From positions 1 to 64,000 of IMG/VR virus record IMGVR_UViG_3300033069_001204: DNA of 64,000 nt; one strand, given 5' to 3'. The position numbers and the translations under genes were made by a program. Each line of letters begins with the position of its first letter. Within the stretch, counting starts at the first letter, position 1. The notes beneath the pieces are model-generated. The model was not told the origin of the DNA. It was given only the letters and a program-made list of their open reading frames with translations, and ran no database searches. This DNA comes from a virus (lineage: Duplodnaviria; Heunggongvirae; Uroviricota; Caudoviricetes). Of this stretch, positions 883 to 63,800 are shown piece by piece.

Positions 883-2499
883 TCACTTCAGATCCTTCCT
901 CTTGAAAGAATTCTGTTTTTTCTTCTTAATTCCCTCCAAATGCCAGAAGGAACTCAGGAAAGGCCGGCCTCTATGGAGGGCCTGGAGGACCTTGACGGAT
1001 TTCGTTCTATCGCATTCTCCATCCCTGACCATGAGCGGGGCCACTCGCATGATGCCCTCCACCTCCTCCCTATCAGTCCGATTCAAAGTCATCACGGCGG
1101 TGGCATGGGCATACTTGCTGGAAGCCTCGGTGAAGTCGCTCCTGTCCTGGAGTTCCTTATCTCCGAACATATTCTTTCCCTGAGTGGCGGTGATCACGCA
1201 GATGTGGCGGTCGAGAGACAGCCTGCGCAAAGCCAGCCACTTCTCATCCTCGCGTTCCCTCTTGTCCTTTCTCATGGTGGACGCCTCATCGGCCAGAATA
1301 TCCGCGTAGTCAATTATTACAATATCTGCGACAAAGTTTCTCGACACCTCCCACTCATCAAGAATGGAGCGAATTCTGCTTATGGATAGCTGCCTGCTGG
1401 CATGGCAGTCCAGCATGATTCTCTTGCCTTTGAATCCGCGATTGAGAGTATTCTGGCAGTCGCGGATCTCCCTCCAAGTCATGGGATCGACTTGCTCAGT
1501 GAGACGCCACCATGCCGCAGGCCTATAGGATTTGGGATAGTGCTTGCGACAGGCAGTGCATGGGACGTATTTGCGATTGCGCTGGACGTATTCTTTCAAT
1601 GGTTCATTGTCCTGTGGCTTGCCGCAACCAAACTCGCATGTCCTGAACTCCTCTCCGCATGAATCGTCCTGGTTGCTCATGCAGTCCATCACCGGCTCAT
1701 ATCTGGGAGAGCAGTATTTCCTCAGATCGGAACGGCCCACCATCCTAATTCCAATGCGTCGGCCCATCTGATTCTTGGACAGGTCTCCGCATTGGAACAA
1801 AGCCACGTTCCTGCGAGCCTTCAGACCCAGGAAGGCCAGCTCCGTCAGCATGAAAGTCTTGCCTGACTTCGGAGGGGCCTGGAATGCCAACAGGCTGTCC
1901 CTGACCAGAAACTCGTTGAGCAGCTCCCCCAGAGCTCCGGACAGCGTCATGAGCGGCTCGCTCTCCTCAGTGAACGCGTCTATGAAGAAGCTTCTATCCT
2001 CCATGATGGAGATGGATGAACTTGTCTCGGCAGCATGTCGGGTGAATGAGGTTATGACGTCCTCAGCCTGTTCTATGTCTCCAGATATGAGATGGCGATC
2101 CAGATCGGACTTGAGGGATTTCACCCTGCAGGTCCGCAAGTAGCTTCTCGCGCCTTCCAGGAAGTGAGCCACATTGAAATGGCCGTCCTCGAATTCAGAA
2201 TCCAGGGACTTCAATTGCTTCAGGATGATGGCGGCATCCTCTTCGGAGATCGCACCATCCTCAGCGGAGGTCATAAGTAGTTCCGAAATATCGGGGCCTG
2301 GGACCTGGCCATAGCGGTCATAGTATTTCAGACACCAGTCCGCCAATATCCTGACATTCTTGGATGGGATCTTGTCCACATCTATGGCATTGCGAATCCC
2401 AATCAGAAATTTCTCGGATGAGATCAGGCCAATTAGAAGCTTGCGTTCCCCGCCACCATCAAACGATACGGTCTTAATTGCCATCAGCGTCGTCTCCAA
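883..2499 (-). CDS. DnaB-like replicative helicase (RecA-fold ATPase) with an inserted Cys-rich segment
   Basis: 538 aa. Walker A APPKSGKTFMLTELA; Walker B-like VIIDYADIL; N-terminal DnaB-like helical domain. The Cys cluster CGEEFRTCEFGCG...CTAC suggests a zinc-binding insertion. Confidence 0.7.
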   Translation of the reverse strand: METTLMAIKTVSFDGGGERKLLIGLISSEKFLIGIRNAIDVDKIPSKNVRILADWCLKYYDRYGQVPGPDISELLMTSAEDGAISEEDAAIILKQLKSLDSEFEDGHFNVAHFLEGARSYLRTCRVKSLKSDLDRHLISGDIEQAEDVITSFTRHAAETSSSISIMEDRSFFIDAFTEESEPLMTLSGALGELLNEFLVRDSLLAFQAPPKSGKTFMLTELAFLGLKARRNVALFQCGDLSKNQMGRRIGIRMVGRSDLRKYCSPRYEPVMDCMSNQDDSCGEEFRTCEFGCGKPQDNEPLKEYVQRNRKYVPCTACRKHYPKSYRPAAWWRLTEQVDPMTWREIRDCQNTLNRGFKGKRIMLDCHASRQLSISRIRSILDEWEVSRNFVADIVIIDYADILADEASTMRKDKREREDEKWLALRRLSLDRHICVITATQGKNMFGDKELQDRSDFTEASSKYAHATAVMTLNRTDREEVEGIMRVAPLMVRDGECDRTKSVKVLQALHRGRPFLSSFWHLEGIKKKKQNSFKRKDLK

Positions 2500-4096
2500 T
2501 CAATCTATCATATTCCTTTTGAACGGCCCCTGACTTCAGCGCCTTGAAGCGGGACTCAAAGAATCCAGGGATGTCCATATTCTCATAATCTATTCTTGCG
2601 CTGGACATTGTCGCCAGGTCATCGAAGAGCTCCACAGTGAGCTTGGCATCCTTGTGGAACATTCCCAAATTGACATGCTCATAATCAAGGCAATTCTCCC
2701 TAATGAATTTGTTGATATATGAGAACGAAGCATCCCTGGCATGGGTCTTGTTGAACTTCCTGCTGCAGCCCTTCCAATATGGGCCTAGCTCATCCCTGAA
2801 CTGGCCAGGACATGCTTTAGGGTCTATGGCAAAACTGCCGTCCTCCTGTTCGCCATACGTGTTCTCATAGAGCAGGTCGATGAATTCCAGGACGCCCCAA
2901 TACCAGGCTCGGAACCCGGCATGGTCCTCCTCATTTCCGGTAATGCCTCCAGCCTTTTCGATTTGTATAGCGATGTTTTCAATCAAGTCCGGTTCCCTCT
3001 CCTGGACGAAGGGGAATGGGGAATCCTCGCTTACCTTTTTGAAGCATTCCAAAACATCCCCATTCCCAGTCCCCTTCCCAAGTCCGGATTTGGAGCGGCT
3101 CGAAACTCTGGGACGATAAAGAGTGGGGATTCCTTTCCCTGTGGAGTATGCTATGGTGGCGAGAATTTCCTCAACGGAGAAATCAGCCAGCCACTCAAGA
3201 ATGAGATTTCCATGGGACTTCAACAAAGCCGCTGTGATGGGGACCTTCCTGGACTTCGGAGCGGACTTATTCAATTCAGCCAATTGTTCAATCCAGTTAG
3301 ACAAAGCCTCTTTGATTTGCGGCCATGCGTCATGCTCTTGAAGCTTCAACGGAGATGCTTCGATTATATCATCCTTGGCATTCTCTCCTGATGGCAGTAT
3401 TCCGAGGCCTGAATTTTTTTCTTTCGAAGATCTTTTTATGTCAATAATATTTCTCGAAGAATGAGAGAATTTATTATTAATCTCTAGGGGGTTATATAAG
3501 GGGGGGACATTTTCAGGGGCCATTTTGGGGGTCTGCTTGTATCGTTTTGTATTCAGCTCCTGATTTCCGAATTTGAAAATTTTAAATTCGACCCCATTTT
3601 CCGAATTTGAAAATTTTAAATTCGACCTCAACTTCTCATCATTGAGAACGCTGGAAATATAATCCTGATTCACGGCTCCCATTCTCTCGTTCAGGACCTT
3701 GAAGTTCACCCTGAACCAAATGGCATTCATCTCGTCCCGCCAGTAGTCCAGAAGGTTTCCCGACACCGTATCTTTGGAGGCCCTGGAGGCTATGGAATGC
3801 AGGACGTTCCTGACCCGATGATATGAGAGATGAAGCTCTCCGCATAGAGTCCCGGCGTCGTGGGGAGTCAGGCCCATGCGAATATGGACAGGGGAGCCTC
3901 CTGTCGATAGGACCCTATTGAGGATGAAGGTCAGAAGGTAGGCCGCCTGGAGATCCCCATCGAGCATGTGGAGAATCAATTGGTCTATGATTATTGGCCT
4001 TCGGAGATTGAATTGCTGGAGAGCATCCATAGCAGCCTCAAAATAAATTCCCTGCTGGCTTCTGGTTGGGGGCCAACCCAATGAGATCCGTGCCAA
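2474..4096 (-). CDS. putative replication initiation / helicase-loading protein with an internal AT-rich iteron region
   Basis: 540 aa. Overlaps the start of the helicase gene. N-terminal wHTH-like region. The central low-complexity linker is encoded by AT-rich DNA carrying two 30-bp direct repeats, an architecture like lambda O with ori-lambda inside it. Confidence 0.4.
   Translation of the reverse strand: MARISLGWPPTRSQQGIYFEAAMDALQQFNLRRPIIIDQLILHMLDGDLQAAYLLTFILNRVLSTGGSPVHIRMGLTPHDAGTLCGELHLSYHRVRNVLHSIASRASKDTVSGNLLDYWRDEMNAIWFRVNFKVLNERMGAVNQDYISSVLNDEKLRSNLKFSNSENGVEFKIFKFGNQELNTKRYKQTPKMAPENVPPLYNPLEINNKFSHSSRNIIDIKRSSKEKNSGLGILPSGENAKDDIIEASPLKLQEHDAWPQIKEALSNWIEQLAELNKSAPKSRKVPITAALLKSHGNLILEWLADFSVEEILATIAYSTGKGIPTLYRPRVSSRSKSGLGKGTGNGDVLECFKKVSEDSPFPFVQEREPDLIENIAIQIEKAGGITGNEEDHAGFRAWYWGVLEFIDLLYENTYGEQEDGSFAIDPKACPGQFRDELGPYWKGCSRKFNKTHARDASFSYINKFIRENCLDYEHVNLGMFHKDAKLTVELFDDLATMSSARIDYENMDIPGFFESRFKALKSGAVQKEYDRLIGDDADGN
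3562..3627. repeat. two perfect ~30-bp direct repeats (tttccgaatttgaaaattttaaattcgacc) spaced 34 bp apart, in an AT-rich tract inside the initiator gene
   Basis: Read directly: 3564-3593 and 3598-3627 are identical. The surrounding 3400-3650 is AT-rich, unlike the ~55% GC of the flanks. Candidate iterons or origin. Confidence 0.7.
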
Positions 4097-8801: not shown

Positions 8802-9137
8802 TCATCCTTTCAAAGGAATTTTGACATATCCCTCGCCCCACGCATCCTGGCAATCCTGACATAGGACGACCTTGTCGGAAAGACGAATTCCATTCTTGCT
8901 GTCGCATAGATGACAGGGCTCAGATTCCACGCTGTTGATTCGCCCCCACTCCTTCTCGGCCTTCTCCAGCGCCTCCACTCTTGTCGAGCCCACCCCAGTG
9001 GCATACTTGTCGCATGCATAGCAATGTCTGATGGCCATCCAATTATTAGGACGCGCTGGTGAAAAGCTCATGGAGTCATACCAATCAGGACATCCGCATT
9101 CCCGGCACTTCACTTTCTTCTTTTTATTCTTGCCCAT
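8802..9137 (-). CDS. Cys-rich zinc-ribbon protein
   Basis: 111 aa. Lys-rich N-terminus followed by several CxxC pairs (CRECGC, CYAC, CHLC, CQDC). Confidence 0.5.
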   Translation of the reverse strand: MGKNKKKKVKCRECGCPDWYDSMSFSPARPNNWMAIRHCYACDKYATGVGSTRVEALEKAEKEWGRINSVESEPCHLCDSKNGIRLSDKVVLCQDCQDAWGEGYVKIPLKG

Positions 9138-13702: not shown

Positions 13703-14317
13703 TCAGCCCCCTACAAATCGGGTGATGTCCTTGAAGGCTCTGGTGCATTTCCTACAGCACCAGCCTTTTTTCATAAGCATCTTCCTGATGCATCCCCGAA
13801 TTTCCTTCTTGCTCATGCGCCCCGAGATGCCGAGGATTTCCGCAGGGGTCCCGAGCACCAGCGCGATGACCTCTCGCGTCTCATCTCCGAGCATCGCGAC
13901 GCGGTCATGGAAGTCCATTGAGATCTCATAGGGCGGCTGTCCCTCGTCCACCGCCTCCACTTCCGATCTGCGTTCCCCCTTCCATTTCCGGATATAGTCC
14001 GACATCTCTTTATTGAGCTTTAAGAATAGCAGGGTCCGGAATGATCCGGCATCCGGATTCCAACGCTTCAAGGCATCCATGAAAATTGAATTGCCTATGG
14101 AGTGGAGCTCGGATAGATCAAAAGAATAGGCACGGTGGAAATGTTCCGCCCGATTGTATATTATGCCAGCGTTCTCTGAGTAGAGTCTACAGGCGGTTGA
14201 CATGGATAAACCTCTCATAATAACACCACAGTTCAATAATGGCAGGGTCCTGCGCTTCGGCAGCCTGGTCATCATCGATGGTTGGTTGAATGCTCGTATA
14301 CGGGCCAACATTGGCAT
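13703..14317 (-). CDS. sigma-70-family RNA polymerase sigma factor (regions 2 and 4); true start probably an internal Met near 14203-14218
   Basis: IYNRAEHFHRAYSFDLSELHSIGNSIFMDALKRWNPDAGSFRTLLFLKLNKEMSDYIRKWK resembles region 2.1-2.4. C-terminal REVIALVLGTPAEILGISGRMSKKEIRGCIRK is a region-4 HTH. Confidence 0.55.
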   Translation of the reverse strand: MPMLARIRAFNQPSMMTRLPKRRTLPLLNCGVIMRGLSMSTACRLYSENAGIIYNRAEHFHRAYSFDLSELHSIGNSIFMDALKRWNPDAGSFRTLLFLKLNKEMSDYIRKWKGERRSEVEAVDEGQPPYEISMDFHDRVAMLGDETREVIALVLGTPAEILGISGRMSKKEIRGCIRKMLMKKGWCCRKCTRAFKDITRFVGG

Positions 14318-15383: not shown

Positions 15384-15677
15384 TCAGCCCCGTTCCAGGG
15401 CCTTGTTGTATTTTCGAACTGCTGCGTGGACCACAAGCATCGGGATCTCCGGATACGTGTGCCACATGAATCGTATCAAGGCCTCTTCGTCATACTTAGG
15501 ATTGGCTTTTCTGGCATCATCGATCCGCTTTCCAAGCACTTCCTTATCGGTCGCCTGCTCTTCCAGCTCCATGCGATGTATTTCCAAATCGACCAAAGTC
15601 ACCACCGGCTTCCTAATCCCCGGAGCGCTGATGGTTCCGTTCCCAAGAATGACTGGAGCGCCTTTTAGATCCTTCAT
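15384..15677 (-). CDS. hypothetical protein (start MKDLKG, SD ggagggag). The upstream region carries TATAAT and the ttttcggaaaatt motif
   Basis: ORF 15384..15698; Met8 at 15677 has a well-spaced SD. Confidence 0.45.
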   Translation of the reverse strand: MKDLKGAPVILGNGTISAPGIRKPVVTLVDLEIHRMELEEQATDKEVLGKRIDDARKANPKYDEEALIRFMWHTYPEIPMLVVHAAVRKYNKALERG

Positions 15678-15730
15678 AATGAATCTCCCTCCATTCAATT
15701 ATATTTCATTTTCGGAAAATTCCACCTCCT

Positions 15731-16180
15731 TTAAATGGATTTTCTTAAAATTTTTCCAGGCCAGACGTATTCCAAATCTGGAGGCTCCACCCAACCATAG
15801 CGACTATAGAACGCCGGATCTTTACGAAGAAGATTTGAGCGGTAGCTGGCATGGTATTCAGCATTCCCAAGCCATGACGGCGTGTCGATACGCATTCCAC
15901 GATCCAGCAAAGCATCCTGCTTATCCATGAAAAAGTCCAAGAGAGAATCACGAAATCCCCGCAACCTCCACTCAGCGCATATCCAGATGGCGTATTCGCA
16001 TAGGCTGGCCTCGTATCCTTTCCATTGGAGGACGGCGGGATGGCTCGACCACCCTCTCCGTCCTTCAGATAGAAGCGCTTGAAGGATCTGCTTGCACTCC
16101 ACTCTTTGCTTTCCCAGCCTCTTGTAGTCTAGGCATCTCGCAGTCAGAGCGAAGCATGCATACGGCATGAACGTCTGCAT
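15731..16180 (-). CDS. putative pyrimidine-dimer DNA glycosylase (Pyr_excise / T4 endonuclease V superfamily-like)
   Basis: 149 aa. N-terminal MQTFMPYACFALTARCLDYKRLGKQRVECKQILQAL...HPAVLQW resembles the bacterial MRLWSLHPKYLDxKGLVALWREALLAQ...HPQL family pattern. Recalled from memory, not searched. Confidence 0.4.
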   Translation of the reverse strand: MQTFMPYACFALTARCLDYKRLGKQRVECKQILQALLSEGRRGWSSHPAVLQWKGYEASLCEYAIWICAEWRLRGFRDSLLDFFMDKQDALLDRGMRIDTPSWLGNAEYHASYRSNLLRKDPAFYSRYGWVEPPDLEYVWPGKILRKSI

Positions 16181-21827: not shown

Positions 21828-21865
21828 TGATTGAAGAAAAAGAGGTCCCCCACGTTCGGGGGACC
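21828..21865 (-). terminator. rho-independent terminator (ggtccccc-acgttc-gggggacc followed by a T-tract on the minus strand)
   Basis: 8-bp GC stem at 21844-21851 / 21858-21865. On the minus strand it is followed by ctctttttcttc. Lies downstream of gene 21883..22230. Confidence 0.6.
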
Positions 21866-21882
21866 CCCAGGAAAAGGCGAGC

Positions 21883-22230
21883 TTATCCTTCGCTTGAGGC
21901 GTCAGCCTTGCCGGCTTTGGCGGGGCCGCCCTTTATTTTGGCCACCACGTCCGGATCATTGTCGATGGCGTATTGGGCGGCCCTTACTTCGACCTCTCCA
22001 ATGTCTGTGGACGCGTCGAAGATGAACTCAGCGGAGTCCTTGTCTGGATCGGCAAAAGCCTTGAGCTCTTCAACCCGGGACTGGAGATAGATGGGCAGGG
22101 CCGCTTGTCTCTGTAGCGCCTCAAGTTCTGTCTGGCGGCATTTCTGGAATAGGAAGTTCGCCGCTTGCGGGTGCTTGGCAATGAACTCCATCCAGTCCTT
22201 GTTGCTGAGATATCTGATTGAGATTTTCAT
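21883..22230 (-). CDS. hypothetical protein
   Basis: 115-aa ORF. Confidence 0.45.
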   Translation of the reverse strand: MKISIRYLSNKDWMEFIAKHPQAANFLFQKCRQTELEALQRQAALPIYLQSRVEELKAFADPDKDSAEFIFDASTDIGEVEVRAAQYAIDNDPDVVAKIKGGPAKAGKADASSEG

Positions 22231-22787
22231 GACATCATCCTTTCTGTTTTGATGGATTCATGATCTTTTCCAACTCTCGTGAATAATGCGGTTCCTTCAT
22301 GACAATCGGCTCCAGGTCCGAATTCTGGGTGCCAGCTGAAGTATGAATGGTCTCCATAGGAAATAGACTCCAGCGCGTAGTCCCCATAGCTAGACAGCCA
22401 CTCCTCAATAAGATGACGATCCTCGGCCCACAGGCCGCCATCCACTCCATACTCCAGATACGATTGCGCCCAGTCCGGGATGTCTAGATTCCTGACGATC
22501 TTATGGTCGGGGTCGTCCTGCACATTGAATGCCATGTAGAAGATTAGGCCATCGTCTATGATGTGGAGCTCCGGGATGTCGCCTATTTCCAGATCCAGGA
22601 AGGCGCGCTCGAGCAGCAGGAGCAACTCCTCCTTGGCATACTCCACTACGTCATTGGCATCCCAAAGCTCATTGGCTTCGATTCTGACGACGCACTCACG
22701 CTCGATTTCCGGCTCAAGGCCTGGAAGGCTCGGCGACTTTTCGGGGACCGGACCCCGGACGAATATCAGATTCCTGACCCATTTCAT
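22227..22787 (-). CDS. hypothetical protein
   Basis: 186-aa ORF. Confidence 0.5.
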   Translation of the reverse strand: MKWVRNLIFVRGPVPEKSPSLPGLEPEIERECVVRIEANELWDANDVVEYAKEELLLLLERAFLDLEIGDIPELHIIDDGLIFYMAFNVQDDPDHKIVRNLDIPDWAQSYLEYGVDGGLWAEDRHLIEEWLSSYGDYALESISYGDHSYFSWHPEFGPGADCHEGTALFTRVGKDHESIKTERMMS

Positions 22788-23197
22788 TTCTTGGCCCTTT
22801 CATATCTGACGATGGCCTGGCGGATCATCTCTGAACATTCCCTGAATGACGACTCCATGTATTGCTGCGCATCAGGAAACTGGGCGTTGCTGGCTTGCAT
22901 TGCGGCCACATCCGCATTGATTGCGGACACCTCGGCGAATAGCAGCAACGCGGCATTTCCTGGATCTCCGGCAAGGGATGGCTGCGGCAGGCTAGGATCT
23001 TCAGGAGGCAGGAATCTCGATATGGCGGGCCGGACCCGCTGCACCCATACCGCCCCATTGATTCCTTTGGTCTTGCCGCTCAGCCAAAAGATGATGGTGC
23101 TATGAGCGAGGCCGAGGCTCTTGGCGAATTGGGTCAAATTGCCCTTGGCTTCGATGGCCTGCTGTATTGCCTTCTTGATTTGTGGGGTGATTCGCAT
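22784..23197 (-). CDS. HTH (XRE/Cro-like) DNA-binding protein
   Basis: 137 aa. NLTQFAKSLGLAHSTIIFWLSGKTKG fits the helix-turn-helix pattern. Confidence 0.5.
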   Translation of the reverse strand: MRITPQIKKAIQQAIEAKGNLTQFAKSLGLAHSTIIFWLSGKTKGINGAVWVQRVRPAISRFLPPEDPSLPQPSLAGDPGNAALLLFAEVSAINADVAAMQASNAQFPDAQQYMESSFRECSEMIRQAIVRYERAKK

Positions 23198-23299: not shown

Positions 23300-23998
23300 C
23301 TACTTTTTGACGGGCTCCTTTGCCCAGCCTTTGGCCTTGTAGAGGTCGTCGAGGCTTTTCTGGATCGTCTTCAGATTGATCTCGAACGCGCCATCTCCGC
23401 CCTGTGCCTTGTCATGTGTCAGGAAGTCGGCCACGATGATGCAACGCTTCACGTATTCCAAGCTGAATGTCGGAGCCTCAGCGCCTTCGATGTCGAAGCC
23501 GTAGCGCTCCTTGGCGATGCTGCGGAACCTCTCGATGTAGACCGACTTGCGGCCCTTGGATTCCAGGGCCTTCAACTTGGCCTGGGTCTCATCCAGGCTT
23601 TTCTGCATTCCGGCGTTGCGGGCCTCGCTCTCGGCGAGCCTCTTCTGAAGCTCGGCCACCGTCATTTCCTTCGACGCTCCCATTTCTTGATCTCCTGTAT
23701 TGGCGGGCTCTTGGAGCCCTGTTGTTGAAAGAAATTCATCCACCTTATGAAGCAGACCGAACTCGGCATCCGTGATGAAATCGAAGTCCGGATCGCCGAG
23801 CTTGCGATTCCTGCATTTCCTGGCATTGTCCTCTGCATGATTCCAGACAAACAGCGAAAGCTCATCCTCGTAGCAGAGATCGATTATCGCGGTCTTTCCG
23901 AATCCGACGAAGATGAGCTCGGGATTCTCCGATTCGATCTCGGTCCAGCCTTTGAACTTCGCCCTTATGGATTCCATGACTTTTTCGATTTCCATCTC
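23300..23998 (-). CDS. hypothetical protein (start MEIEKVMESI with a caggagg SD)
   Basis: ORF 23300..24064; internal Met at 23998 has a good SD. C-terminal coiled coil. Confidence 0.5.
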   Translation of the reverse strand, partial: EMEIEKVMESIRAKFKGWTEIESENPELIFVGFGKTAIIDLCYEDELSLFVWNHAEDNARKCRNRKLGDPDFDFITDAEFGLLHKVDEFLSTTGLQEPANTGDQEMGASKEMTVAELQKRLAESEARNAGMQKSLDETQAKLKALESKGRKSVYIERFRSIAKERYGFDIEGAEAPTFSLEYVKRCIIVADFLTHDKAQGGDGAFEINLKTIQKSLDDLYKAKGWAKEPVKK

Positions 23999-24079
23999 AA
24001 GGCCTCCTGTTTGTTGTCTGGAATTATACGACAGGCGGGGCTCCCATGCACCGGCCTGCCGCATTTATTTTCCGAAAAT

Positions 24080-24397
24080 TCAATAGCCGTTCACAATGGC
24101 CCATAGATTTTCGCGAGACTGCCAAGCATCGGGGTCTCGCATTGTCTTCACTTGCTCGGATATGGAGCGGCACTCATCGCAGAGCCTCTGATCCTTTTGC
24201 GGGGTCAGAGCCCTGCGTTTGCCGCATATTGAGCACTTCCCCCTGTCTCGTTTCGGTTTCATGTCCAGGCCTTTCAAATTGCCCAATAGAACCCATAGAA
24301 TAGCAGGGCGCATTCCGTCGCGAATAGGACCATTAGCAGAACATCCTTGGCGGTAATGCGGTCTGCATTGACATCGGCGACCAGCGCCTGTCTCCAT
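24080..24397 (-). CDS. small zinc-ribbon protein (likely MKPKRDRGKCSICGKRR...CDEC; real start internal)
   Basis: Two CxxC pairs. The ORF's N-terminal extension is doubtful. A separate ~44-aa membrane peptide (MPYRW...LLFYGFYWAI) probably lies at 24274..24408. Confidence 0.35.
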   Translation of the reverse strand: METGAGRRCQCRPHYRQGCSANGPIRDGMRPAILWVLLGNLKGLDMKPKRDRGKCSICGKRRALTPQKDQRLCDECRSISEQVKTMRDPDAWQSRENLWAIVNGY

Positions 24398-27888: not shown

Positions 27889-28305
27889 TTATTGAATTAT
27901 TCCGAATTCCATATAGCCGCGGATTCCCGTTATCATCTTGGCGAGGTCGGGATACTCCTTTTCCTGCTCTGGCACGAACTCGCCTTCCACTCTGTCAAAG
28001 AAGGCGCGGTTGCCTACGATCCGGGCTCCGCGCTCCGGCCCGAATACCATGACGTAGCCGGCGATGTCCAGCATTTCCAGGACTTCCCTATGCTTGATGA
28101 TGTCCTTGGCACCCTGACGAAAGCCCAGCTTGAAGCAGGTCGATCCGCGCAGGACGATGATGTCAGGATTCCCGGCCCTCCAGCCATTGGAGAAGCCCCG
28201 CTCGAATTCCAGGCGCTCGTCCTCGGTCAGCATAGGCTTTTTGCGGGCTAGGGCCTCAGAGGCTCTTGCGCTGGCCACGTCGAAGACGTCGTTGTTCGGA
28301 TTCAT
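27889..28305 (-). CDS. hypothetical protein (start MNPNNDVFDV; SD aagggaaggag)
   Basis: ORF 27889..28341 with an internal Met and a strong SD. Confidence 0.5.
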   Translation of the reverse strand: MNPNNDVFDVASARASEALARKKPMLTEDERLEFERGFSNGWRAGNPDIIVLRGSTCFKLGFRQGAKDIIKHREVLEMLDIAGYVMVFGPERGARIVGNRAFFDRVEGEFVPEQEKEYPDLAKMITGIRGYMEFGIIQ

Positions 28306-28341
28306 TTCCTGATCTCCTTCCCTTTGGTTGGGCATTCCCAT

Positions 28342-29692
28342 TATAAGCCTCTATTCACTTAGGCCCATAATGGGAATGGGCCGGAACTCCGGTATGGAGA
28401 ACCGGCCAGCTTCCCGTCTTCAATTTCCCGGACTTGGCGCCCTTCAGCTATTCGCCTATCGCGCTGGCTATTCGAATTCCTTGCGGCCCTTCGCTCCCTA
28501 GCTACCGCCGCCTATCCATTCGCATGCCCGGCAAAGCCCAGCCATTCCTATGATGGAGAATGGCCGTCCTTCACCTTCGTCTCGTTGACTATTGTCGTCC
28601 CGTCCAACCCCTTTATGGGAGCCTTGGCATCTGGAGCCCTTTAGCCCGAATAGGCCCTTGATTATTTAATTGGCCTATGGAATTCATCTCCAGCCCTTTT
28701 GCGGCTTCCCAATATTCGATTGGGGGATTTCCTCCTTGAGGGAATTCTGATTCCCTTGGATCTTTCAATGAGCACCGGAGCCTCTAGCGCTCCTTCAATG
28801 ATTCCATTATAGAATGGGATTGCAGAATAGGCAATAGCTTTTTCCGAAAATTTTCGGAAAATAATGGAGACCCTGGAATTGTCCCTGTGGAGCCTGCATC
28901 CCTGGGCGCAGGGTCGAGCCTAATGAGTCCTTAGAGTGGAGTCCTTAAGGCCAATATAGGCTCTTTTTCAGGGCCGGAATCCCAGGGATTCCCTATTCCT
29001 TATTATATAAAGGGAATTTCAGGGGCCAAAACCACGGCCATGGAATCCGGCCATTCCAGCAAAACACGAATCCCATGATGCCATAGGACTATGATATGGG
29101 GAATCCCATGATGTGGGAATACGGGCCATGCAATGCCAGACAGGGAATGACGCCATCCCTGGGAGCCGGGCCGGGCGGGGACGGGGATGGCCCTTATATG
29201 GGAAAGAGGGGAGGGGAGGCGGGACGGAATCCCAGGGGCCTGGGGGCCGGCCGGGCCGCGCGCCGGGGGAGGCTCCCCTCCTCGTGACATTCTCTCGTGA
29301 CATTCTCTCACGACATTCTTTCCATGGCATCAGGCCCATTCCCGGTCTCTTTCCATGGCATCAGGCCCATTCCCTATTCGCCATCCAATCCTCTCCCCTT
29401 ATGGCCTTCCCTATATGCCTTCATCATATCTTTCCCCACATATCCCTCCCATGCCTTTCCTCTATGGGAATATTATGGCCTTCCCTATATCTCTCCATTA
29501 TAATATATAGTTCTCCATATAGGCCTGTCTCCATATATCCATGGTCTCCCCTATTATATTCCCATAGCCATAGTCTCCGGATTTCTCCCCCCGGAAAATT
29601 ATGTCTTCCGTGACAGACATGAAAACCGGCTGTTGGTCTTTTCCTGTATTCCCTATATATTATCCTAGCCAAACCAATAAGGAGTCCATCCA
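28342..29692. promoter_or_regulatory. 1.35 kb non-coding divergent region packed with iterons and palindromes (candidate origin, pac site or regulatory switch)
   Basis: - Only compositionally biased short ORFs.
- Contains: an 8-bp inverted repeat at 28338-28374; a 20-bp perfect palindrome tttccgaaaattttcggaaa at 28841-28860; GGAATCCC(A) at 28976 (itself palindromic), 29068, 29101 and 29226; three tandem 13-bp units at 29283-29321; a 24-bp repeat ttccatggcatcaggcccattccc at 29320-29343 and 29351-29374; atggccttccctatat at 29401 and 29476; a G-run tract at 29160-29280.
- Plus-strand composition switches from C-rich to G-rich across it. Confidence 0.7.
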
Positions 29693-31256: not shown

Positions 31257-31574
31257 ATGCGCATAACGATATCTAAAGATTTTACAGATGCTCCAGGAGG
31301 AAGATATATTAAAAATGGTGATTTTTCTGGAGAGTATTTTAGAGAAAAACATTTGGTTCCTGCATTTGACAGGCTCTCTAAAGGAGAAAAACTTATCGTA
31401 AATCTTGATGGTTGTTTTGGATTTGTGACAAGTTTCCTTGAGGAGGCCTTTGGAGGGCTTGCTAGGGAAAAAGGGACAAATGTCGTTCTAGAAAGAATTG
31501 AAATAGAAGATACTGAACAGCCAGAGCGCATAGAGTTGATCAAGTCGTATATTAAGAATGCAAATAACAAATGA
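31257..31574 (+). CDS. STAS-like (DUF4325-type) small protein in an AT-rich moron
   Basis: 105 aa. KLIVNLDGCFGFVTSFLEEAFGGL resembles the DUF4325/STAS pattern (xDFxGVxxISSSFxDEaFG). Local GC is much lower than the flanks. Confidence 0.4.
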   Translation: MRITISKDFTDAPGGRYIKNGDFSGEYFREKHLVPAFDRLSKGEKLIVNLDGCFGFVTSFLEEAFGGLAREKGTNVVLERIEIEDTEQPERIELIKSYIKNANNK

Positions 31575-31888: not shown

Positions 31889-32137
31889 ATGGATTTCAGC
31901 GACGCGTTACTACATCTCAAAGCTGGAAGCAAGATTCGCAGAGAGGGATGGAATGGCAAAGGGATCTTCGTAGGAATGGCCGAACCCGGACCCAGCCCGG
32001 ATCTATTCACTGCTCGATGCCTATACATTGACACTACGGGGCTCCGGACCAAAAACAAGAAAGCCCCCAAGTGTCGGGTTCCATGGCTGCCAAGCCATAC
32101 GGATATTCTAGCGGAGGATTGGGAGCTGCTCAAATGA
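31889..32137 (+). CDS. DUF2829-family protein (Thoeris anti-defence Tad2-like)
   Basis: 82 aa. MDFSDALLHLKAGSKIRREGWNGKGIFVGM matches the DUF2829 N-terminal signature ALxxLKxGxKxxRxGWNGKGxF. SD aggagg. Confidence 0.5.
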   Translation: MDFSDALLHLKAGSKIRREGWNGKGIFVGMAEPGPSPDLFTARCLYIDTTGLRTKNKKAPKCRVPWLPSHTDILAEDWELLK

Positions 32138-33321: not shown

Positions 33322-34773
33322 ATGGGTTCCGGAACCATTATTCTAAATGTCCTGACGTCCAAAGTCTTCCGTAAGATAAAGGAGGCGGCCGGTCCCTATT
33401 TGACTGAGGAGGAACGCAACGCCAGGATAGCCAGGGGCGAGACGATGTCCGAAGTCCGACACATTGTGCTGTCTGGCTCCAGCCGCTCAACAAAGACCTA
33501 TAGCGCGCTGCAGTTCATAATAAGCTGTTGCCTTGCGAATCCCGGACTTCAATGCGCCATCATAAGGGCCAAGCTGACCTGGCTCCGCAAGACAGTCTTC
33601 AAGGATTTCGTCAAGATCATGCACATGGCAGGGCTCTGGGATCCCTCCAGGATGAACAGGTCCGAGTGGGAATACACTTTCGACAACGGCTCCCAGATCT
33701 CATTCATAGGAATGGACCAGGATGCCGGCTTCGCAAAGGTCCACGGCATGAAGACCGACCTGGCCTTCTATAATGAAATAACGGAGCTCAGCTATGACCA
33801 CGTCCGTCAGGTCGATATCCGAAATACCTGGCTCCAGATCTACGACTTCAACCCGAACTGTCCGGAGCGTTACTGGATCTATGAACGCATCCTGTCCCAG
33901 ACCGGGAAGGCCGTCCACATCCATTCTACATATAAGGACAATCCATTCCTGGAGCGTCGCGTCGTGGAGAGCATCGAAGCCTATGAGCCGACCCCTGCCA
34001 ACATAGCGAGAGGGACCGCCGACAAGACATTCTGGGATATCTATGGCCTGGGCGTCCGCGGCACCATCTCCGGGCTGGTGTTCACCAATTGGAGGATGGT
34101 CAAGGACCTGCCGGATAAGCTGGACAAGCCTGGATATGGAATGGACTTCGGATTCACAAACGACCCCACCACCTTGACATTCTGCGGGCAGACCCCCGGA
34201 GAGATCTGGGTGGATGAGCTCATATATGAACGGGACCTCGTCAATCTATGCGTGCCGAACAATCCGGGCATCCGAAGCATAGAGGGCGAGATGCTCAGGC
34301 TCAAGGTCAAGAAGACCCTGCCGATGTATTGCGAGTCGGCCGAACCCAAGACGGTCAGGGATATGCAGAATGCCGGCTTCAATGCCATTCCGGTCGTGAA
34401 GGGTCCGGGCAGCGTGGTGGCCGGCATCACAGGCATGAAGCGATTCAGGCTGAATGTCACGGAGCGTAGCATCCATATCATAGCCGAGCTCGGCAACTAT
34501 AAGTGGAAGGATCAGAAAGGGTCCCTAGGGGAGGCGTTCGTCAATGAGCCCGTGGACGCCTGGAACCATTGCCTGGACGGCATACGCTACTACGTGATGT
34601 CCTGCGAACCTGGAAGCTGCATGGTGGAGCAGGGCAGGACCGAGATGCTGCCAATAAGAGTGGGACGCGGAGTGGCCAGCCGCAAATATGACATGTATCA
34701 GGGTCCCGATAATGAAGAGGGACAGGAGGCCCATCGCAGATGGCTGGATGCCGTATCCCAGCGAAGTCAGTGA
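33322..34773 (+). CDS. terminase large subunit (ATPase + RNase H-like nuclease)
   Basis: 483 aa. Walker A VLSGSSRSTKTY; nuclease motifs GMDFGFTNDPTTL and DAWNHCLDGIRYYV. Confidence 0.9.
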   Translation: MGSGTIILNVLTSKVFRKIKEAAGPYLTEEERNARIARGETMSEVRHIVLSGSSRSTKTYSALQFIISCCLANPGLQCAIIRAKLTWLRKTVFKDFVKIMHMAGLWDPSRMNRSEWEYTFDNGSQISFIGMDQDAGFAKVHGMKTDLAFYNEITELSYDHVRQVDIRNTWLQIYDFNPNCPERYWIYERILSQTGKAVHIHSTYKDNPFLERRVVESIEAYEPTPANIARGTADKTFWDIYGLGVRGTISGLVFTNWRMVKDLPDKLDKPGYGMDFGFTNDPTTLTFCGQTPGEIWVDELIYERDLVNLCVPNNPGIRSIEGEMLRLKVKKTLPMYCESAEPKTVRDMQNAGFNAIPVVKGPGSVVAGITGMKRFRLNVTERSIHIIAELGNYKWKDQKGSLGEAFVNEPVDAWNHCLDGIRYYVMSCEPGSCMVEQGRTEMLPIRVGRGVASRKYDMYQGPDNEEGQEAHRRWLDAVSQRSQ

Positions 34774-34836
34774 TTTTTGAGAATATCAACGTATAGTATC
34801 CTTGGTTTCCGGAAAACAACCAATTGGAGGAATACA

Positions 34837-57883: not shown

Positions 57884-60800
57884 TTATGCCTCCTTCTTTG
57901 TCTCAGTCTTGGTTTCGGTCTTGGCTGGCGGGGCCTGCTTGGCTCCTCCCTGATACTGCTTGACCACCTTCAGATATGGAGCGTTGTATTTCTTCTCGCC
58001 CACGCTATCCACTGCGGCCCTGGCCCCTTCTGGAGTCATCTTGAACTTCTCCACCAGGAACTTGATGATGCCGTCCTTGCTGAATGTCAGGCCTTCGGAG
58101 CCTTCGACATACACTATGGCGGCATCGTCGACCTCGATGGGTCCTTTCGCGGCCTCAGGCATTAGGCTGTCGATCAGCGACACCCTGGCATGCTTCAGCT
58201 TATCAAGGGCGTCAGTGACCTTGACCATTTTCTCCGCTTGAGCCCTGACCTCTGGGGACAAATCCGACATGGCCATAAAATCATCTCCTATGTTATCATT
58301 GAAACCTTCTGTAGAGCCATCCTCATCCACGATGTCATATTCCTGATCCTGGGGAGCCGCAATAGGGCCTACGATTATTTGACGATTCCCATCCTTATCC
58401 ACCACCACGCGCCGTCTGGACTTGATCTCTTCCAGAGCCTTCTTGCGCAAATCAGCCAAAGCCCTTTTATAGACATCTATTTGTTCTGGGGTGAGAGGGT
58501 TGTCTTTGAAGTCATTGGGGGCATAGGCCTCTATCAGCCCGGCCTTCTCACCCTCTGGAATATCCTCGCTATCCTCAATCTCCTTGCGTAGCGCCTTCAT
58601 GGCTGAAGGCTCCCGGACCGCCCTGCGGAATCCATCCGCGACCATGGCATCCATTATTAGCAGATCATCGGAGTCAAGCTGGATGACTTCCTGCTTGCCA
58701 TCCTGCATCCTGATCTTGATGCTCTTGGAGGCCATCATAGGATGCCAGGCGCTTTCCGGGTGGTCTGAATTATACCTGACCAGAGCTGCATCGAAGTCAG
58801 GGACCGGAGCGCCTATGGCCATGGAGGCCGCGCGGCTGTCGTAGAGGTCCAATTGATATGGAGACCAGATGTAGGATCTCCAGTCTCCGGAAGCCCTGAT
58901 GGCATCCCTGTTCTTGAAGTATTGCAGGATCTGGCCTATTGGAAGTCCGAAGGTTTCCGCAATGGCCCTGACGGGATGATCGACTATGTCGGACAAAGCC
59001 CTGAGCTGTGGAGGCACTATCTGCCATTCCCACGAAGCCTCTCTAAGCTTCTCAGCCTTGACCTTGGCGTCCTTGGACATCATCGCCCAGGCGTAGGATA
59101 TCAGGCCATTGGCGGCTTCGCCCAGGAGCGGAATGCCGCCTAGGACCTGCTGGGCCATTTGCTTGACGAGGTCGTCCGTCCTGGAGAAGTAGGCGAAGCT
59201 TCCTGTGGTGGCGGCGAAGCTTACGAGAGCCGGAGCCACGACATAGAATCCCAGGCCGCTTCCTATCTCCTTGATGCGTTCATACGCCGAAGCATCCCGC
59301 ATATCCGGGCTATAGAGTCCGCGATAGGCCGACTCGAATAGTGCATTCATCTGGCGGTTGAGCGGACCTTTGAACATAGTGAGAAGCTTCCAGGCTCCCG
59401 GCTCACGGAATAGCGTGGGGAGATATCTCCAGTCACCAAGGCTCTGGGTCTTCCTCACCACCTCATCCGCTATTCTGGCAGCGGCCTCCGGACCTTTGGT
59501 CTCGGAGTGCGTGAGATAATGCGCGAGCCAGACATGAACGGCGACTCCCTGGTCCACTTTGGATATTGGAATCATGGAAGTCTGGACGAACCATCTAATG
59601 GATGGCTTGGGCATGTTCTTGACAAGGCCCTCCGGAACTCCAGCCCAAATCATGATTGAGCCTATGGCCTCTCTGGAAGCTCCAGCCGGGATTCCCATGG
59701 CCTCCCTGAGCGACTCCTCGCTGGCGGCCTCTATGCGCTCCGCCAATTCCCTCTGAAGGTTGTGCGGGCGATTCTTCATGAAGGGGCTGGCTTCGTAGAT
59801 CATATTCAAAGTCTTGCCGACCCTGAACACGTCCTGAGGTCCGGGGGAGAGCAAGTATGCCGCCCGTATGGCCGCCGTCGGGCTGCTACCTTTCATTCCA
59901 ACTGGAAGCGAGGAAAGCTGATTGAGCACGGACACCACGCGGAATCCCAAAGAGGATACAGCCATTGAATTCCTGAAGTAGTCCAGGACTCCATCATTAT
60001 TGTTACGATTCCTGCCAAATGCCACGTCCTCAAGCCATTTGCTGACTTGGCGATAAGCCTCTTCGGATCGTAGTTTCATGGCCCTGCTTATGGCCTTGTC
60101 GTTGAGATAGGATGCCGCATGGGTCAAGGCTTCATTGCTGGACACATACCAAGCGGTATCCAGCATATTCCTATTGACTGTCCCGAAATAGCTCAACCGA
60201 TCAAAGCCCTGCTGCCCTCCAGTCCTCTCCTTCGTGCTGGAAGTCCTGGCATTCGGGTTCTGGCGGTAGAGGAGCCTGGCCTTCATGTCGGAGAGGATGC
60301 CGTCCTTTGCGGAATACGAGTCATGGTCCAGGTTCCTGATTGGGAAATAGCCATCGATCTTCTCCATGTCGATGCCATGCTCCCTACGGAACTCCTTATT
60401 GACCATTCCCCATTGGGTATCGGAATACCACTGGATCTGTCTATCGATGGCATCCTTCAGGCTCTGTGGCAGTATCCTCTCCGTCTCGCTTATGACATCG
60501 TGGATGGTGCCCTCCAGGAAGGTCCCGGCAAGATGCTGGATGTTATCCGGATTCTTCGAGTTGGCATATATGAACATCAGGTTGTCCAGAGACATCGGAC
60601 CCAGGTCAATATTCCTGCCACGGACATCCTTGACATGGAGGGTGTGTTGTTTCTTGGAGAGCCCGCCTTTCATGTCCTCCCAGGCCAGTTCATGGTTGGC
60701 TATGGTGGCCTTGCTCATGGCCTCCGATACTTTGAAGTTCTCATTGATGGCGTCGTTGACGACGTCGAACACGTTCCTCTTGAGAGCGGAGTCCTTCACC

Positions 60801-63800
60801 ATGCCCGTGAACCAGTCAATAATGGTCTCCGGAGCCAACATGCCCCAGCCGCCATTCTTAATGGCCAGGCCCATGTCCTGAAGCCTATTGAGGAAGGACC
60901 GGCTGTAGCCGCGCTCGGAAGCCATTCTGGTATTGAAGTCGCGGACCCAGTCGGGCTTTTCCGGATTGGGGAGGGACATCGCCCTGCCCATCTGGGTCAC
61001 GCCTTCCTGGACCTCAAAGGAGAACGCGGAGGTCTCCAGCCGCTTCAAGAGGTCATGCTTGGTCTCGCCTATGGAGCGGAGCATATAGATATCATCAACG
61101 ATGCTCTGCAAGCTGGAGGTGGGAAGGTCCTCAAGCCTTACTGCGCTATTCCTGCGAAGGTATTGAGCCATCTCCTTGGCCAGGTAGTCAGGGATGAATG
61201 CCTGCCTCTGCTGCGCATCCAATTCCCTCCTCAGATCATTGAGCCTGGAAAGCTGCTCATCGGAAAGCAAAGCGCCATCAGCTGTGAGCATACCTTCAGG
61301 ATTTCCGGTGATGTCCTCAATCTCGGCGGTAAGCTCCGACTGTCTCTGATTGACCTTCTCGAAGTGGTCCACCGTCTTCTGGATGGCTTCATCATTCCTT
61401 GCCGGGACTTCATTCAGGCTGTCAAGATACTCGGCCAGCTTCACGTTATTCTCATAAGGCATCGTGGCCTCATTCGGGGCTGACTGAAGCCTCTTCAAAT
61501 AGGCCCTGGAGGACGAGATGGCATCCTTCGCCAGATTGAGAGCCACGGCATGGCGTTCCTCCCTGGCCTGGCCCATCACATCATCCAAGACATTGAACAT
61601 CTTCTGGGTGGCCAGATCGGGATTTTTGAGATCCCTGATTTCCAGGAGCCGGGACTTGGCCTTCTCCTTGGCGAGCTGAGGCACGTCTTCGGAGCGAATG
61701 GCATCCATGATGATGCTCTCATACGCTGAGCGATACTGTGCCGGGACCATGTCGGAGCGAATGGCATCGTCGGCAATCTCCTTGACCATGGCCGACTGAT
61801 TCCTGGAGGAGTCCACCGCCTCATTCCAGTTGGCGCGCTCCTCCTCTGACAGAAGCCTCCAAGGCATCTTATAGCCAGAGGCATCCGCTGGGACCACTCG
61901 ATTGTAGAAGGTCTCTCCGCTGGTCAGGATGACGTCCCCTGTCGGATCATGTCCCCATTCCCCGGTATAGAGCGGAGGCATCCCGGCATCCTTCCCCGCT
62001 CCTTTGGCCTTGGCGTATTCAAGGATTCTTCTATAATAGGAATTGACTGCGATATCATTCCTGCGCTTCTCGAATTCCGAGGGCAGGTCGTCGCAGATCT
62101 TAATGACGCGCTCCGCAAATGCGTTCCAATTCCTGGAGGTCTTCCCCGCCTGGACCACGGCCTTCTTGAGCTTGGCGGCATCCTCAGGGTCTCCAACCAC
62201 GTTGTCGATATATTCTCCAGCCGCCTCTATGGCCTCCGCCATATTCTTGCGGCCCAGGGCATCGCCCACACTGATCCATTTCTGGAATGCGGGAATCTCG
62301 TCCGGGGACACGCCGCCCTTTTTGCCGATTCTGGTGATGACCTTATTGGCTATCTTGATATCGCGATCCTTCGTGCTGATGGAGGCGAAGGATTCCGAAT
62401 CATGGTGGTTGGCTGAGAGGACCAGCTTCAGAAGATCGGGATGGGCCTTCAGCATGTCTTCCGATATCTTGGAGATAAGCGGATCATTGGGAACGAACTC
62501 GTCCCTGGAATCCCTGAAGATATTCGCTCCGGAGAGGTCGGCCACGAAGTATGCCTTGCCATCGACCTCCGTCACGAATACGTGGTCCGCCAATGGAAGC
62601 TCGGCGGCCCTATTGGAGAACAGGCTCGTGGCATCCTTGAGGTTGTGCTTCTCAAGCATCTGATTGAACTTCACAGCGAAGTCCGAATCGGTCTCCTTGG
62701 CGAAGGACTTCTTGCTCCTGAATGGCTGGGCCGTTATGGCTCCGCCTTCGGAGTCGAGGCCGATGAAGCGTATCGGAGAGAATCCCATGGCGTTGGCCAC
62801 TTCCAACCGAGTCAGGAGATCGCCAAGCGATGAGCCCCAACCACGGGCCGGGAGCAATTTGCCTGATGGCGTGTGGTAGGTGTAGATCTTCATGCCATAG
62901 CCTTCTTTGGCATCGACATGATGCCCAGCCACCCAGCGGTCTTGCAATGGCCACGACTTGAATATCGTGTGTGAGTAGTCAGGGAGCGTGAATAGGACGC
63001 CTTCGGAGCCGGAGGATACTATCTTGGCCGGGCTTCCCTTCTTCTGGACATAGGAGGCGCCATCCCAATTCATCAGGGTAGAGAGATCTATGGTCGGATC
63101 TCCCAGGGCCGAATTGATCAGGACTGCGTATTGGCTCCCTTTGCCTCTTGCGATTGGGAGCTCCGTCGCCTTTTCTCCTGCCTTGTCCAGGAGCGTTGTA
63201 TGGCTTCGCGCATTCTCGTCTTTCCAAGTCTTTTGTCCCTCTTCGAGTCCCACAGACTCGAATACTCGTCCTTTTCCACCGAGCGCATCTGTAGCCTCCT
63301 TTGCTGTTTTTGTCGGCTCGCTTGAGAGCAGCCTTTTGAATCTATTCGTCTTGTCCGTCGAGGCGGCGAACTGGGAGCCGAAGTCATCGAGATTCAGGCC
63401 ATAATTCGCAAGCTCCTCATTCATGGAGCGGCGCATCTCGAAATCGGAAAGCAGGGCCGGATCGTCCATGCGCTTCAGAATGGACTGCGCTACGGGCTCT
63501 GGAACCTTGGCGGCGCTGAGCCTGACCTTTGGCGGGACATTCCTGCGATCAGGCTCGCCCTGGGCTTCAGGAGTCCCCTGGTAGCTTTTGAATAGGTCGG
63601 AGATTGTCCCGGCCACATCGGCGTCGCTAGCCTCCCCGAAGATGCCGGGGAATACCCTCTTGAACCATACCATGATATTGTGGACGAACTGGCCAAGCTG
63701 TCCTTTGCCTTCCATATCCCTAAAGGCTCCGGACTCCATGAACTTCGCCACCTTCTCCATTGCCAGGAGCTTGCCGATCTGTTCAGGGGTCTTCCCCTGT

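Follow-up and report, generated by a model that had tools for sequence, protein, structure and literature searches.

What does a short palindrome with A/T-rich arms do beside phage promoters? The question is raised by positions 1 to 64,000 of IMG/VR virus record IMGVR_UViG_3300033069_001204 (Caudoviricetes), the whole of this 64,000-nucleotide stretch being referred to here as the window. The initial annotation had described a TTTCCGAAAAT-type motif recurring at 15709-15721, 24067-24079, and 28841-28860 and had proposed that it was either a binding site for a phage helix-turn-helix (HTH) or ribbon-helix-helix (RHH) regulator or a −35-like element for a phage-encoded sigma factor. The motif is real, highly non-random, located at promoters, and conserved, and the sequence, its positions, and its conservation were observed directly. 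We consider it moderately probable that its copies, termed boxes here, are operators for a dimeric, sequence-specific DNA-binding regulator, placed in promoters for leftward early and middle transcription that are of the host housekeeping (sigma-A/sigma-70) type.

Four exact copies of the 11-mer TTTCCGAAAAT were found, at 15708-15718 (minus strand), 24069-24079 (plus strand), 28841-28851 (plus strand), and 28850-28860 (minus strand), versus 0.03 expected from dinucleotide shuffles; none of 100 shuffles reached four, which bears out the earlier judgment that chance occurrence is unlikely. With up to one mismatch, the 13-mer gave five matches versus 0.05 expected, and in an unbiased k-mer count of both strands ATTTTCGGAAAA/TTTTCCGAAAAT was the only 12-mer occurring at least four times in 64 kb. 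The unit of the box is an odd 6+1+6 palindrome, ATTTTC-S-GAAAAT, in which the arms ATTTTC and GAAAAT flank one central C or G, and the general form of the 13-base palindrome is (A/T)TTTTC-C/G-GAAAA(A/T). Equivalent positions can carry C or G at the center, in either orientation (C at site A of the window, G in the proximal box of the related GROS21 phage). When only the center was relaxed (ATTTT-N3-AAAAT), four hits were obtained versus 0.04 expected, and a fifth box was exposed at 15739-15751; arm spacings of N1, N2, and N4 gave no hits in the window. The four-place motif of the initial annotation stands as regards its exact copies, but its unit is the 13-bp odd palindrome, and the fifth box had been overlooked. 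The overlapping copies at 28841-28860, already recognized as palindromic, form a perfect 22-bp palindrome (28840-28861), and the exact 22-mer is absent from IMG/VR.

The flanks of the window's four boxes are unrelated, with nothing in common beyond the 13-mer, and hits to the 11-mer with up to two mismatches (22 in all versus 10.9 expected) are near background beyond the four perfect copies, with almost no intermediates. The common element is therefore the 13-mer itself and not a duplicated segment. All boxes lie in early or middle regions; the structural modules have none, and no additional box occurs in the 7 kb beyond the left end of the window that is provided by the Logan assembly of SRR32380203, which carries a sequence identical to the window. 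Operators of HTH regulators typically have dyad symmetry over 12 to 18 bp, and the 6+1+6 palindrome falls within that range.

Every box in the window lies upstream of a perfect TATAAT on the transcribed (minus) strand, at distances of 4, 27, 35, and 38 nt; positions of box centers were computed with the −10 hexamer set as −12 to −7. At site A, the TATAAT that the initial annotation had noticed beside 15709-15721 is genuine: the hexamer occupies 15698..15703 on the minus strand (15703..15698 in the direction of transcription) and is followed by a short leader to the ATG of gene 15384-15677. Its proximal box (15708..15720), which reads ATTTTCCGAAAAT in the leftward direction of transcription, ends 4 nt upstream of the −10 hexamer and is centered at about −23. 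The distal box (15739..15751), which reads ATTTTAAGAAAAT in the same direction, is degenerate, with intact arms and an altered center; it is 35 nt upstream of the −10 hexamer, centered at about −54 and thus 31 bp center to center from the proximal box, and falls within the 3′ end of the Pyr_excise gene (15731-16180). A conserved module, at the head of which the site A promoter stands, extends via a sigma-like gene as far as the SNF2 helicase and primase genes. At site B, the −10 hexamer TATAAT (24023..24028, minus strand) precedes a short leader and a four-gene operon (23300-23995, an HTH gene at 22784-23197, 22227-22787, and 21883-22230) that ends at a strong terminator (21841-21868). The single box (24067..24079; ATTTTCGGAAAAT in the direction of transcription) is 38 nt upstream of this hexamer, is centered at about −57, and abuts the stop codon of 24080-24397. 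Site C is the main leftward early promoter, TTGCCT-17 nt-TATAAT (28806..28834, minus strand; −10 hexamer at 28811..28806), and the same TTGCCT-17-TATAAT promoter is present in the relative L084. Here the proximal box (28839..28851; ATTTTCGGAAAAA in the direction of transcription) is 27 nt upstream of the −10 hexamer, 4 nt upstream of the −35 hexamer, and centered at about −46, and the distal box (28850..28862; ATTTTCCGAAAAT) is 38 nt upstream of the −10 hexamer and centered at about −57. The two centers are 11 bp apart, and the two boxes jointly make up the palindrome 28840-28861.

Exact TATAAT occurs 14 times on the minus strand of the 64 kb, and three of these hexamers lie just downstream of the box loci; by our own estimate, the probability of three chance coincidences within 45 nt is ~1e-6. 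Neighboring box centers are separated by 11 bp (site C) or 31 bp (site A), roughly one or three helical turns, and location in promoters with multiple helically phased copies is the arrangement expected of operators for an HTH regulator. Across the window and its relatives, 9 of 10 −10 hexamers at box promoters are exactly TATAAT, and most of those in the relatives are TG extended; promoters A and B of the window have poor −35 regions and no TG extension. A second TATAAT (28345..28340), downstream of site C, lies ~30 nt before the first early gene, for which the main promoter at 28811 would otherwise give a leader of ~490 nt; it is overlapped by an 18-nt inverted repeat (28333-28378; 89% complementary, 10-nt gap).

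Whether the boxes are under selection can be judged from related phages, which are few. The window is a phage genome segment with a large terminase (TerL) gene at 33322-34773, and a search of 5.8 billion proteins returned only two TerL relatives of >50% identity. One (P0002; 65% identical) is from the ENA GROS21-1 assemblies (contigs L082 and L083), and its contig ends just upstream of TerS and so holds no early or control region; the other (P0003; 53% identical) is from a 34-kb JGI contig (L084, L169). The structural and replication modules are syntenic among the relatives, and the promoter-proximal early genes are without detectable similarity. INPHARED (megablast and blastn) held no useful relative of the window and IMG/VR no close one, the best TerL matches there being ≤40% identical. 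Contigs L165 to L168 (TerL 45 to 48% identical) were considered as comparison phages and set aside, as they represent a GC-39% phage and a satellite-like island. On the latter (L167 4488-11275, and L168), a TerL gene whose product is 48% identical to that of the window belongs to an island of integrase, HTH_17, PrimPol, TerS, and TerL genes inside a bacterial contig, and this island looks more like a phage satellite than a phage.

The initial annotation had let its motif stand or fall with conservation in related phages, and the box passes this check: it is kept in the GROS21 phage and occurs in a shifted version in L084/L169. In the GROS21 phage, ligase contigs (L170 to L172; ligase 56% and TerL 65% identical to those of the window) carry TTTTTCCGAAAAA-19 nt-TTTTTCGGAAAAT-CTGA-TATAAT immediately behind the stop codon of the ligase gene. 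The box is of the window type, stands 4 nt from the −10 hexamer as at site A, has a second box 32 bp upstream, and is in an orthologous position. L084/L169 has no window-type box and no N3 copy. It has 13 exact ATTTTYRAAAAT boxes (ATTTTTGAAAAT/ATTTTCAAAAAT) and two one-mismatch copies (0.14 expected), all in the early region, of the form ATTTT-YR-AAAAT; spacing between the arms is only N2 in this phage and only N3 in the window. These boxes form six cassettes, each consisting of a distal box, 9 to 22 nt, a proximal box, 4 to 6 nt, and (TGA)TATAAT. The main leftward promoter, TTGCCT-17-TATAAT, has its homologue in one cassette, where a box occupies the spacer, and another cassette follows the ligase module. 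Box centers in L084/L169 lie at about −23/−24.5, −46, and −54 to −57, and center-to-center distances in the relatives are 22 to 23 or 30 to 34 bp. Proximal boxes are 4 to 6 nt from the −10 hexamer in all three phages. Within the L084/L169 cassettes the boxes are identical, while the spacers between them vary in length (9 to 22 nt) and sequence. This is the pattern expected of operators under selection: the boxes are constant where flanks and spacers have diverged, position is kept in three phages, and the type of box is specific to the lineage.

A/T-rich sequence at such positions might also be intrinsic promoter DNA that needs no dedicated regulator, the upstream copies acting as an UP element or phased A-tract bend for the alpha subunit of RNA polymerase and the proximal copies as an AT-rich spacer. 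Site C fits this explanation best. Its AAAATTTT at about −55 to −48 and AAAAA at about −44 to −40 agree with ~11 of the 15 specified positions of the UP-element consensus, reportedly that of Estrem et al. from 1998, in our own alignment; the boxes there occupy exactly the interval of an UP element (−59 to −38) upstream of TTGCCT, and the A/T tracts match its proximal and distal subsites. GAAAATTTTC is a classic bent A4T4 sequence, and the box centers are in helical phase. UP elements and bends, however, tolerate variation and need no dyad, whereas here 12 to 13 positions, including the G/C center, are invariant amid unrelated flanks. An A/T-rich stretch at about −38 to −59 is found at site C and partly at site B but not in the case of the spacer-located proximal boxes of site A, GROS21, and L084; at −23, between the −35 and −10 positions, a box is out of the reach of the alpha subunit. 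Each phage is also strict in its arm spacing, N3 or N2, with no mixing. An intrinsic role is therefore regarded as quite unlikely, and the short dyad, its invariance amid drift, the single helical face, the position kept in three phages, and the lineage-specific spacing of the half sites argue for a protein operator over generic promoter DNA.

The occurrence of similar sequences in other viruses bears on the same point. Pairs of TTTTCSGAAAA within 30 nt were found in 109 IMG/VR stretches from ~31 unrelated viral contig families, ~70 of the stretches being from one GC-33% prophage family; a composition-matched control palindrome gave 17 stretches, and a W-centered CodY core gave at least 120. 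By family, the excess over the control is roughly twofold, a point in favor of intrinsic promoter DNA, and it is too weak to indicate a shared or universal factor. None of the 109 stretches is related to the window phage, and a metagenome scan for box-N38-TATAAT gave, among the matches listed, only unrelated contigs (median GC 40%), none related to the window. One unrelated GC-57% viral contig (L237 10075-10111; L279 378-414) carries the same 13-mers as the window, ATTTTCGGAAAAT, 11 nt, and ATTTTCCGAAAAT, 24 bp apart and 10 nt upstream of TTGACT in a divergent region ahead of terminase genes. The prophage family (L174 to L280; ~70 IMG/VR contigs, GC 33 to 35%, ~43 kb) has a conserved 41-nt unit, TTTTCGGAAAA-N19-TTTTCGGAAAA, followed by CGGAAAA repeats, which may be an origin or a coding repeat.

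The window does encode a putative sigma factor, as the initial annotation had proposed, and the proximal boxes could in principle be a −35-like element for it. Scans of the 79 window proteins against Pfam and PHROG at standard thresholds gave no significant HTH, RHH, or sigma family; the product of 13703-14203 (minus strand), the gene for which is in the operon that follows the site A promoter, nevertheless matches PHROG sigma families (E 5e-6) and TIGR02937 (E 2e-7, below cut-off). Its AlphaFold (AF2) model fits the sigma-2 domain of SigE at an rmsd of 2.4 Å, as well as SigW and SigL, and its homologue in the 53%-TerL relative (L169 13576-14085) also matches sigma models. The protein is a diverged sigma-70 family member of the extracytoplasmic-function (ECF)-like type, on which late genes may depend. 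A conserved factor of this kind, the near-fixed distance of 4 to 6 nt between proximal boxes and −10 hexamers in three phages, and the frequent autoregulation of ECF sigma factors, with the sigma gene downstream of site A, would all suit the proposal. The geometry does not. A −35 element is asymmetric and stands at a fixed distance, whereas the box is a palindrome that occurs in both orientations, and distances of 4, 27, 35, and 38 nt to the −10 hexamer are incompatible with the ~17-bp (16 to 18 nt) geometry of the sigma-70 family. Moreover, the −10 sequence is the housekeeping TATAAT or TGnTATAAT rather than an ECF type, and site C has its own −35 hexamer (TTGCCT) and has to be active when no phage protein has yet been made. 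Because of its symmetry, the variable distance, and the housekeeping-type −10 sequence, the box is excluded as the −35 element of this protein, and a role in promoters read by it is very improbable.

Replication or recombination offers another explanation, in which the boxes would be iterons or module boundaries related to the repeats at 3564-3627, where the initial annotation had placed two variant copies. These repeats adjoin the DnaB-like helicase gene and have TT(T)CCGAA and GAAAATTTT in common with the box, and TTTTCSGAAAA occurs in iteron-like tandem arrays of other phages. The shared 7- to 9-mers, however, are within chance and belong to one 34-bp unit in tandem duplicate inside ORF 2474-4030, a frame that scores best throughout and thus carries a coding signal, so the variant is discounted. 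This ORF, which has no family match, lies directly upstream of the helicase gene (883-2484), and by analogy with lambda O the repeats may be an origin inside an initiator gene. The boxes themselves are dispersed over three promoters 8 to 13 kb apart rather than clustered as direct repeats, and their conservation in relatives tracks promoter geometry, not an origin. Site C can form a hairpin of 9 bp as single-stranded DNA (−8.3 kcal/mol; z = −3.1), which would suit a recombination or origin structure, but a single box cannot, since its loop would be 1 nt; a hairpin or cruciform role was rejected, as only site C folds and does so as a trivial outcome of its palindrome. We regard an origin or recombination function as extremely improbable. 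A further variant that had been listed near the 34837 start, TTTCCGGAAA at 34806, is likewise discarded: it is an even palindrome of different spacing, and neither relative has conserved it at the corresponding junction. In both relatives this junction is a conventional TTGACA/T-16-TATAGT/TATGGT promoter with no box, and TTTCCGGAAA and ATTTTTGAGAAT (at 34773), which are in or next to a conventional promoter (TTGACA-16-TATAGT in the relatives) and are not conserved there, were rejected as boxes.

If a protein binds the boxes, it could belong to the host. CodY, a global regulator of Firmicutes and Synergistetes that senses GTP and branched-chain amino acids, recognizes the consensus AATTTTCWGAAAATT (PMC5314169), and binding of a CodY-type protein would couple early and middle phage transcription to host physiology. 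The boxes match this Firmicute consensus at 12 to 13 of 15 positions, including both arms and G9/A10, with two mismatches each at 15707-15721, 24066-24080, and 28849-28863 and three at 28838-28852. GATTTTCTTAAAATT at 15738-15752 also has two mismatches and is nearly identical to AATTTTCTTAAAATT, the CodY box of Synergistes/Cloacibacillus (PMC9318921). Functional motifs in Bacillus subtilis have three to five mismatches, keep G9/A10, and may overlap by 4 bp, as do braB motifs 3 and 4 with centers 11 bp apart (PMC4608796); the boxes are thus closer to the consensus than most functional sites and well within ~5 mismatches, and the 4-bp overlap of the two boxes at site C, with centers 11 bp apart, matches the braB precedent. 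A Firmicute-like host would be in keeping with the TG-extended −10 hexamers, the strong GGAGG ribosome sites, and the SigI/ECF-like sigma matches. Searches for the host were uninformative: a TerL profile search of genome contigs returned only prophages (≤38% identical, mostly Bacteroidota) and allowed no host assignment, a major capsid protein search and a tRNA search gave no host clue and no tRNA, and the window had no Rfam match.

Several features are difficult to reconcile with CodY. First, the central base is S in four of four exact window copies and two of two GROS21 copies, where CodY has W; only the degenerate copy at 15739-15751 has T at CodY central position 8. Second, the copies are invariant rather than scattered around a consensus. 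Third, L084 uses 13 identical 12-mers that are one base shorter between the arms; because this shorter 12-mer is fixed, a co-evolving phage factor explains the N2 boxes more easily than does a highly conserved host regulator. Finally, a literature search found no paper tying CodY boxes to the promoters of lytic phages. As to a specificity shared by related phages of related hosts, GROS21 keeps the box, and ATTTT-N2-AAAAT, the only form in L084/L169, still has four mismatches to the CodY consensus when aligned without gaps (our own count). Binding by host CodY is accordingly possible but not likely. The more specific proposal that a virulent phage with modified DNA (see below) has wired its early and middle promoters to a host CodY-type sensor via near-consensus but S-centered boxes at −23, −46, and −57, with a one-base-pair retuning of the box in the sister lineage, is unlikely. 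If the binder were CodY, a lytic phage would be sensing host nutrition through a global regulator, with its development gated by GTP and branched-chain amino acid status, as a CodY counterpart of the phi29-Spo0A arrangement.

We therefore return to operators for a regulator of the phage's own; here, binding by a protein, the direction of its regulatory effect, and the choice of binder are predictions. The one or two boxes of each promoter share a face of the helix and are centered at about −23 in the spacer just upstream of the −10 hexamer or at about −46 and −54 to −57, and two dimers would bind cooperatively. The promoters appear intrinsically strong and in no need of an activator, since the −10 hexamers match the consensus and are mostly TG extended in the relatives. 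The net effect would probably be repression or timing control of these strong promoters, as −23 is a repressing position, at which a bound protein would occlude RNA polymerase, and boxes at −46 and −57 could block upstream (UP-like) contact. Since sister phages differ in the arm spacing of the box (N3 versus N2), the regulator is probably encoded by the phage.

A single candidate is visible, the product of 22784-23197 (minus strand; 137 amino acids, with two long C-terminal helices), which is an XRE/Cro-CI-type HTH protein and the only HTH-like early protein seen in the window. It matches Pfam HTH_3 (E 0.004) and YdaS (8.5e-4), both below cut-off. In a single-sequence AF2 model, its N-terminal domain has pLDDT values of 76 to 89 in blocks 1 to 40 and 68 to 80 in blocks 41 to 60 and superposes on the DNA-binding domain of SinR at an rmsd of 2.1 to 2.3 Å, as well as on C.BclI, C.AhdI, and P22 c2; the Foldseek E-values are weak (0.2 to 1). 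As the second gene of the site B operon, it is in a place that would allow autoregulation. The proposal of the initial annotation that the motif is a binding site for an HTH or RHH regulator is supported in kind, by a dyad 13-mer that is found only at promoters, is phased, and is conserved while its flanks diverge. It is not supported as to the binder: the HTH protein 22784-23197 is unlinked to the box, and no RHH protein was detected.

Several observations weigh against phage operators of this kind. Beyond the candidate, no binding protein came to light. The candidate itself is an ORFan: among 5.8 billion proteins, including those of the GROS21 samples that carry the same box, it has no homologue, which makes its link to the box a conjecture, and Pfam recognized no HTH family among ten early proteins of L084. 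Because window promoters A and B have neither a good −35 hexamer nor a TG extension, they could conceivably be activated from −54 or −57. The boxes of site C occupy the position of an UP element, and the boxes are only two to three mismatches from the CodY consensus. The sample of the lineage is three phages, and sites B and C can be compared in no relative.

For a phage lineage that has three known members, is otherwise unannotated, and has mostly ORFans as early genes, these results provide a first regulatory map, consisting of three host-type promoters that each have a compact operator. The difference between N3 and N2 arm spacing in sister phages that otherwise keep their promoter geometry is a clean natural case of operator divergence, and it should point to the cognate regulator as more genomes appear.

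Early and replication genes run leftward from ~28.3 kb to 0.4 kb, rightward genes start at ~29.7 kb, and a 1.35-kb noncoding region (28342-29692) separates the two blocks. In addition to TerL, the window encodes an SNF2 helicase, an ATP-dependent ligase, a topoisomerase-like protein, Mu-type head proteins, and a DnaB-like helicase. The phage DNA may be modified: QueD of the preQ0/7-deazaguanine pathway is encoded at 447-845 (PTPS, E 4e-31), and genes for a QueE-like protein, QueC, and GTP cyclohydrolase I lie just past the left end of the window (L319 10396-13408), which together suggest a 7-deazaguanine modification. Candidate antidefense genes encode a Tad2-like protein (E 6e-20) and a DUF4325 STAS-like protein (31889-32137 and 31257-31574), and there is an Acb2/Tad1 hairpin-domain match (E 1e-4) among the early proteins, the gene for which was not located. 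ORF 57884-63760 (minus strand; 1,958 amino acids) is part of a far larger virion gene; on the Logan contig (L577 3-9458), the same frame extends over at least 3,151 amino acids and runs off the contig end.

The noncoding control region contains repeats of other kinds. A very GC-rich core (~29140-29270) is followed by three tandem 13-bp repeats of CTCGTGACATTCT (29281-29319) and two 27-bp repeats of TCTTTCCATGGCATCAGGCCCATTCCC (29317-29374), and L084 has the same layout, with a GC-rich block and then two copies of TTTCCATGACATTTCC (~8970-9030); the core and repeats might serve as an origin, as a pac site, or as late-promoter elements. Words resembling GGGAATCCC cluster at 28165-29233, including the palindrome GGAATCCCAGGGATTCC at 28976-28992, and are abundant in the L084 control region. 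They may be a second type of operator; genome-wide, they show no significant enrichment (48 versus 33 expected). In L084, ~15 tandem 18-bp repeats (CCTGCTTYGATGTAGTAG-like; 3431-3690) lie inside an early gene of 225 amino acids and would encode a hexapeptide repeat.

The boxes can finally be compared with regulatory elements of well-studied phages, the properties of which are given here as general background. The virulent Bacillus phage phi29 uses host sigma-A polymerase and has host Spo0A boxes in its early promoters. Like the proposed operators of the window, its Spo0A and p4 sites are regulator sites in early promoters from which a factor acts at core-overlapping and upstream positions, but the 0A box is an asymmetric 7-mer (TGTCGAA), the p4 sites consist of inverted repeats spaced 15 bp from each other, and there is no sequence similarity. 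The MotA box of T4 is likewise a phage-specific element that replaces a poor −35 hexamer upstream of a sigma-70-type −10 hexamer in promoters of replication genes. It is asymmetric, centered at −30, and separated from the −10 hexamer by 11 to 13 bp, whereas the window box is a dyad found at about −23 and, in additional copies, at −46 and −57. Stoperators of mycobacteriophage L5, the sites of gp71, resemble the boxes as a 13-bp motif at gene junctions throughout the early region; there are ~30 of these asymmetric sites, all in the same orientation with respect to transcription and with no link to a −10 hexamer, in contrast to five symmetric window boxes that occur with both central-base orientations and all stand beside −10 hexamers.

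Operators of the XRE/Cro-CI type (lambda, 434, and P22 OR-OL, SinR sites, and the C-boxes of C proteins) differ from the boxes in being concentrated in switch regions, whereas the window sites are distributed over 13 kb at three promoters, their arms are pure A/T tracts, and the cognate regulator is only a candidate. Neither in the 64-kb window nor in the 7 kb adjoining it on the left, moreover, is an integrase or immunity module evident, unlike in phages with XRE/Cro-CI systems. The likeness is nevertheless considerable: these operators are short dyads of 12 to 18 bp, a promoter has at least two of them, aligned on a single helical face and either overlapping the core promoter or adjacent to it, and related phages have different versions. 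An XRE-fold protein is, in addition, encoded near the boxes. The boxes thus fit a well-known kind of element and, unless the binder is host CodY, are best explained as an ordinary phage operator.

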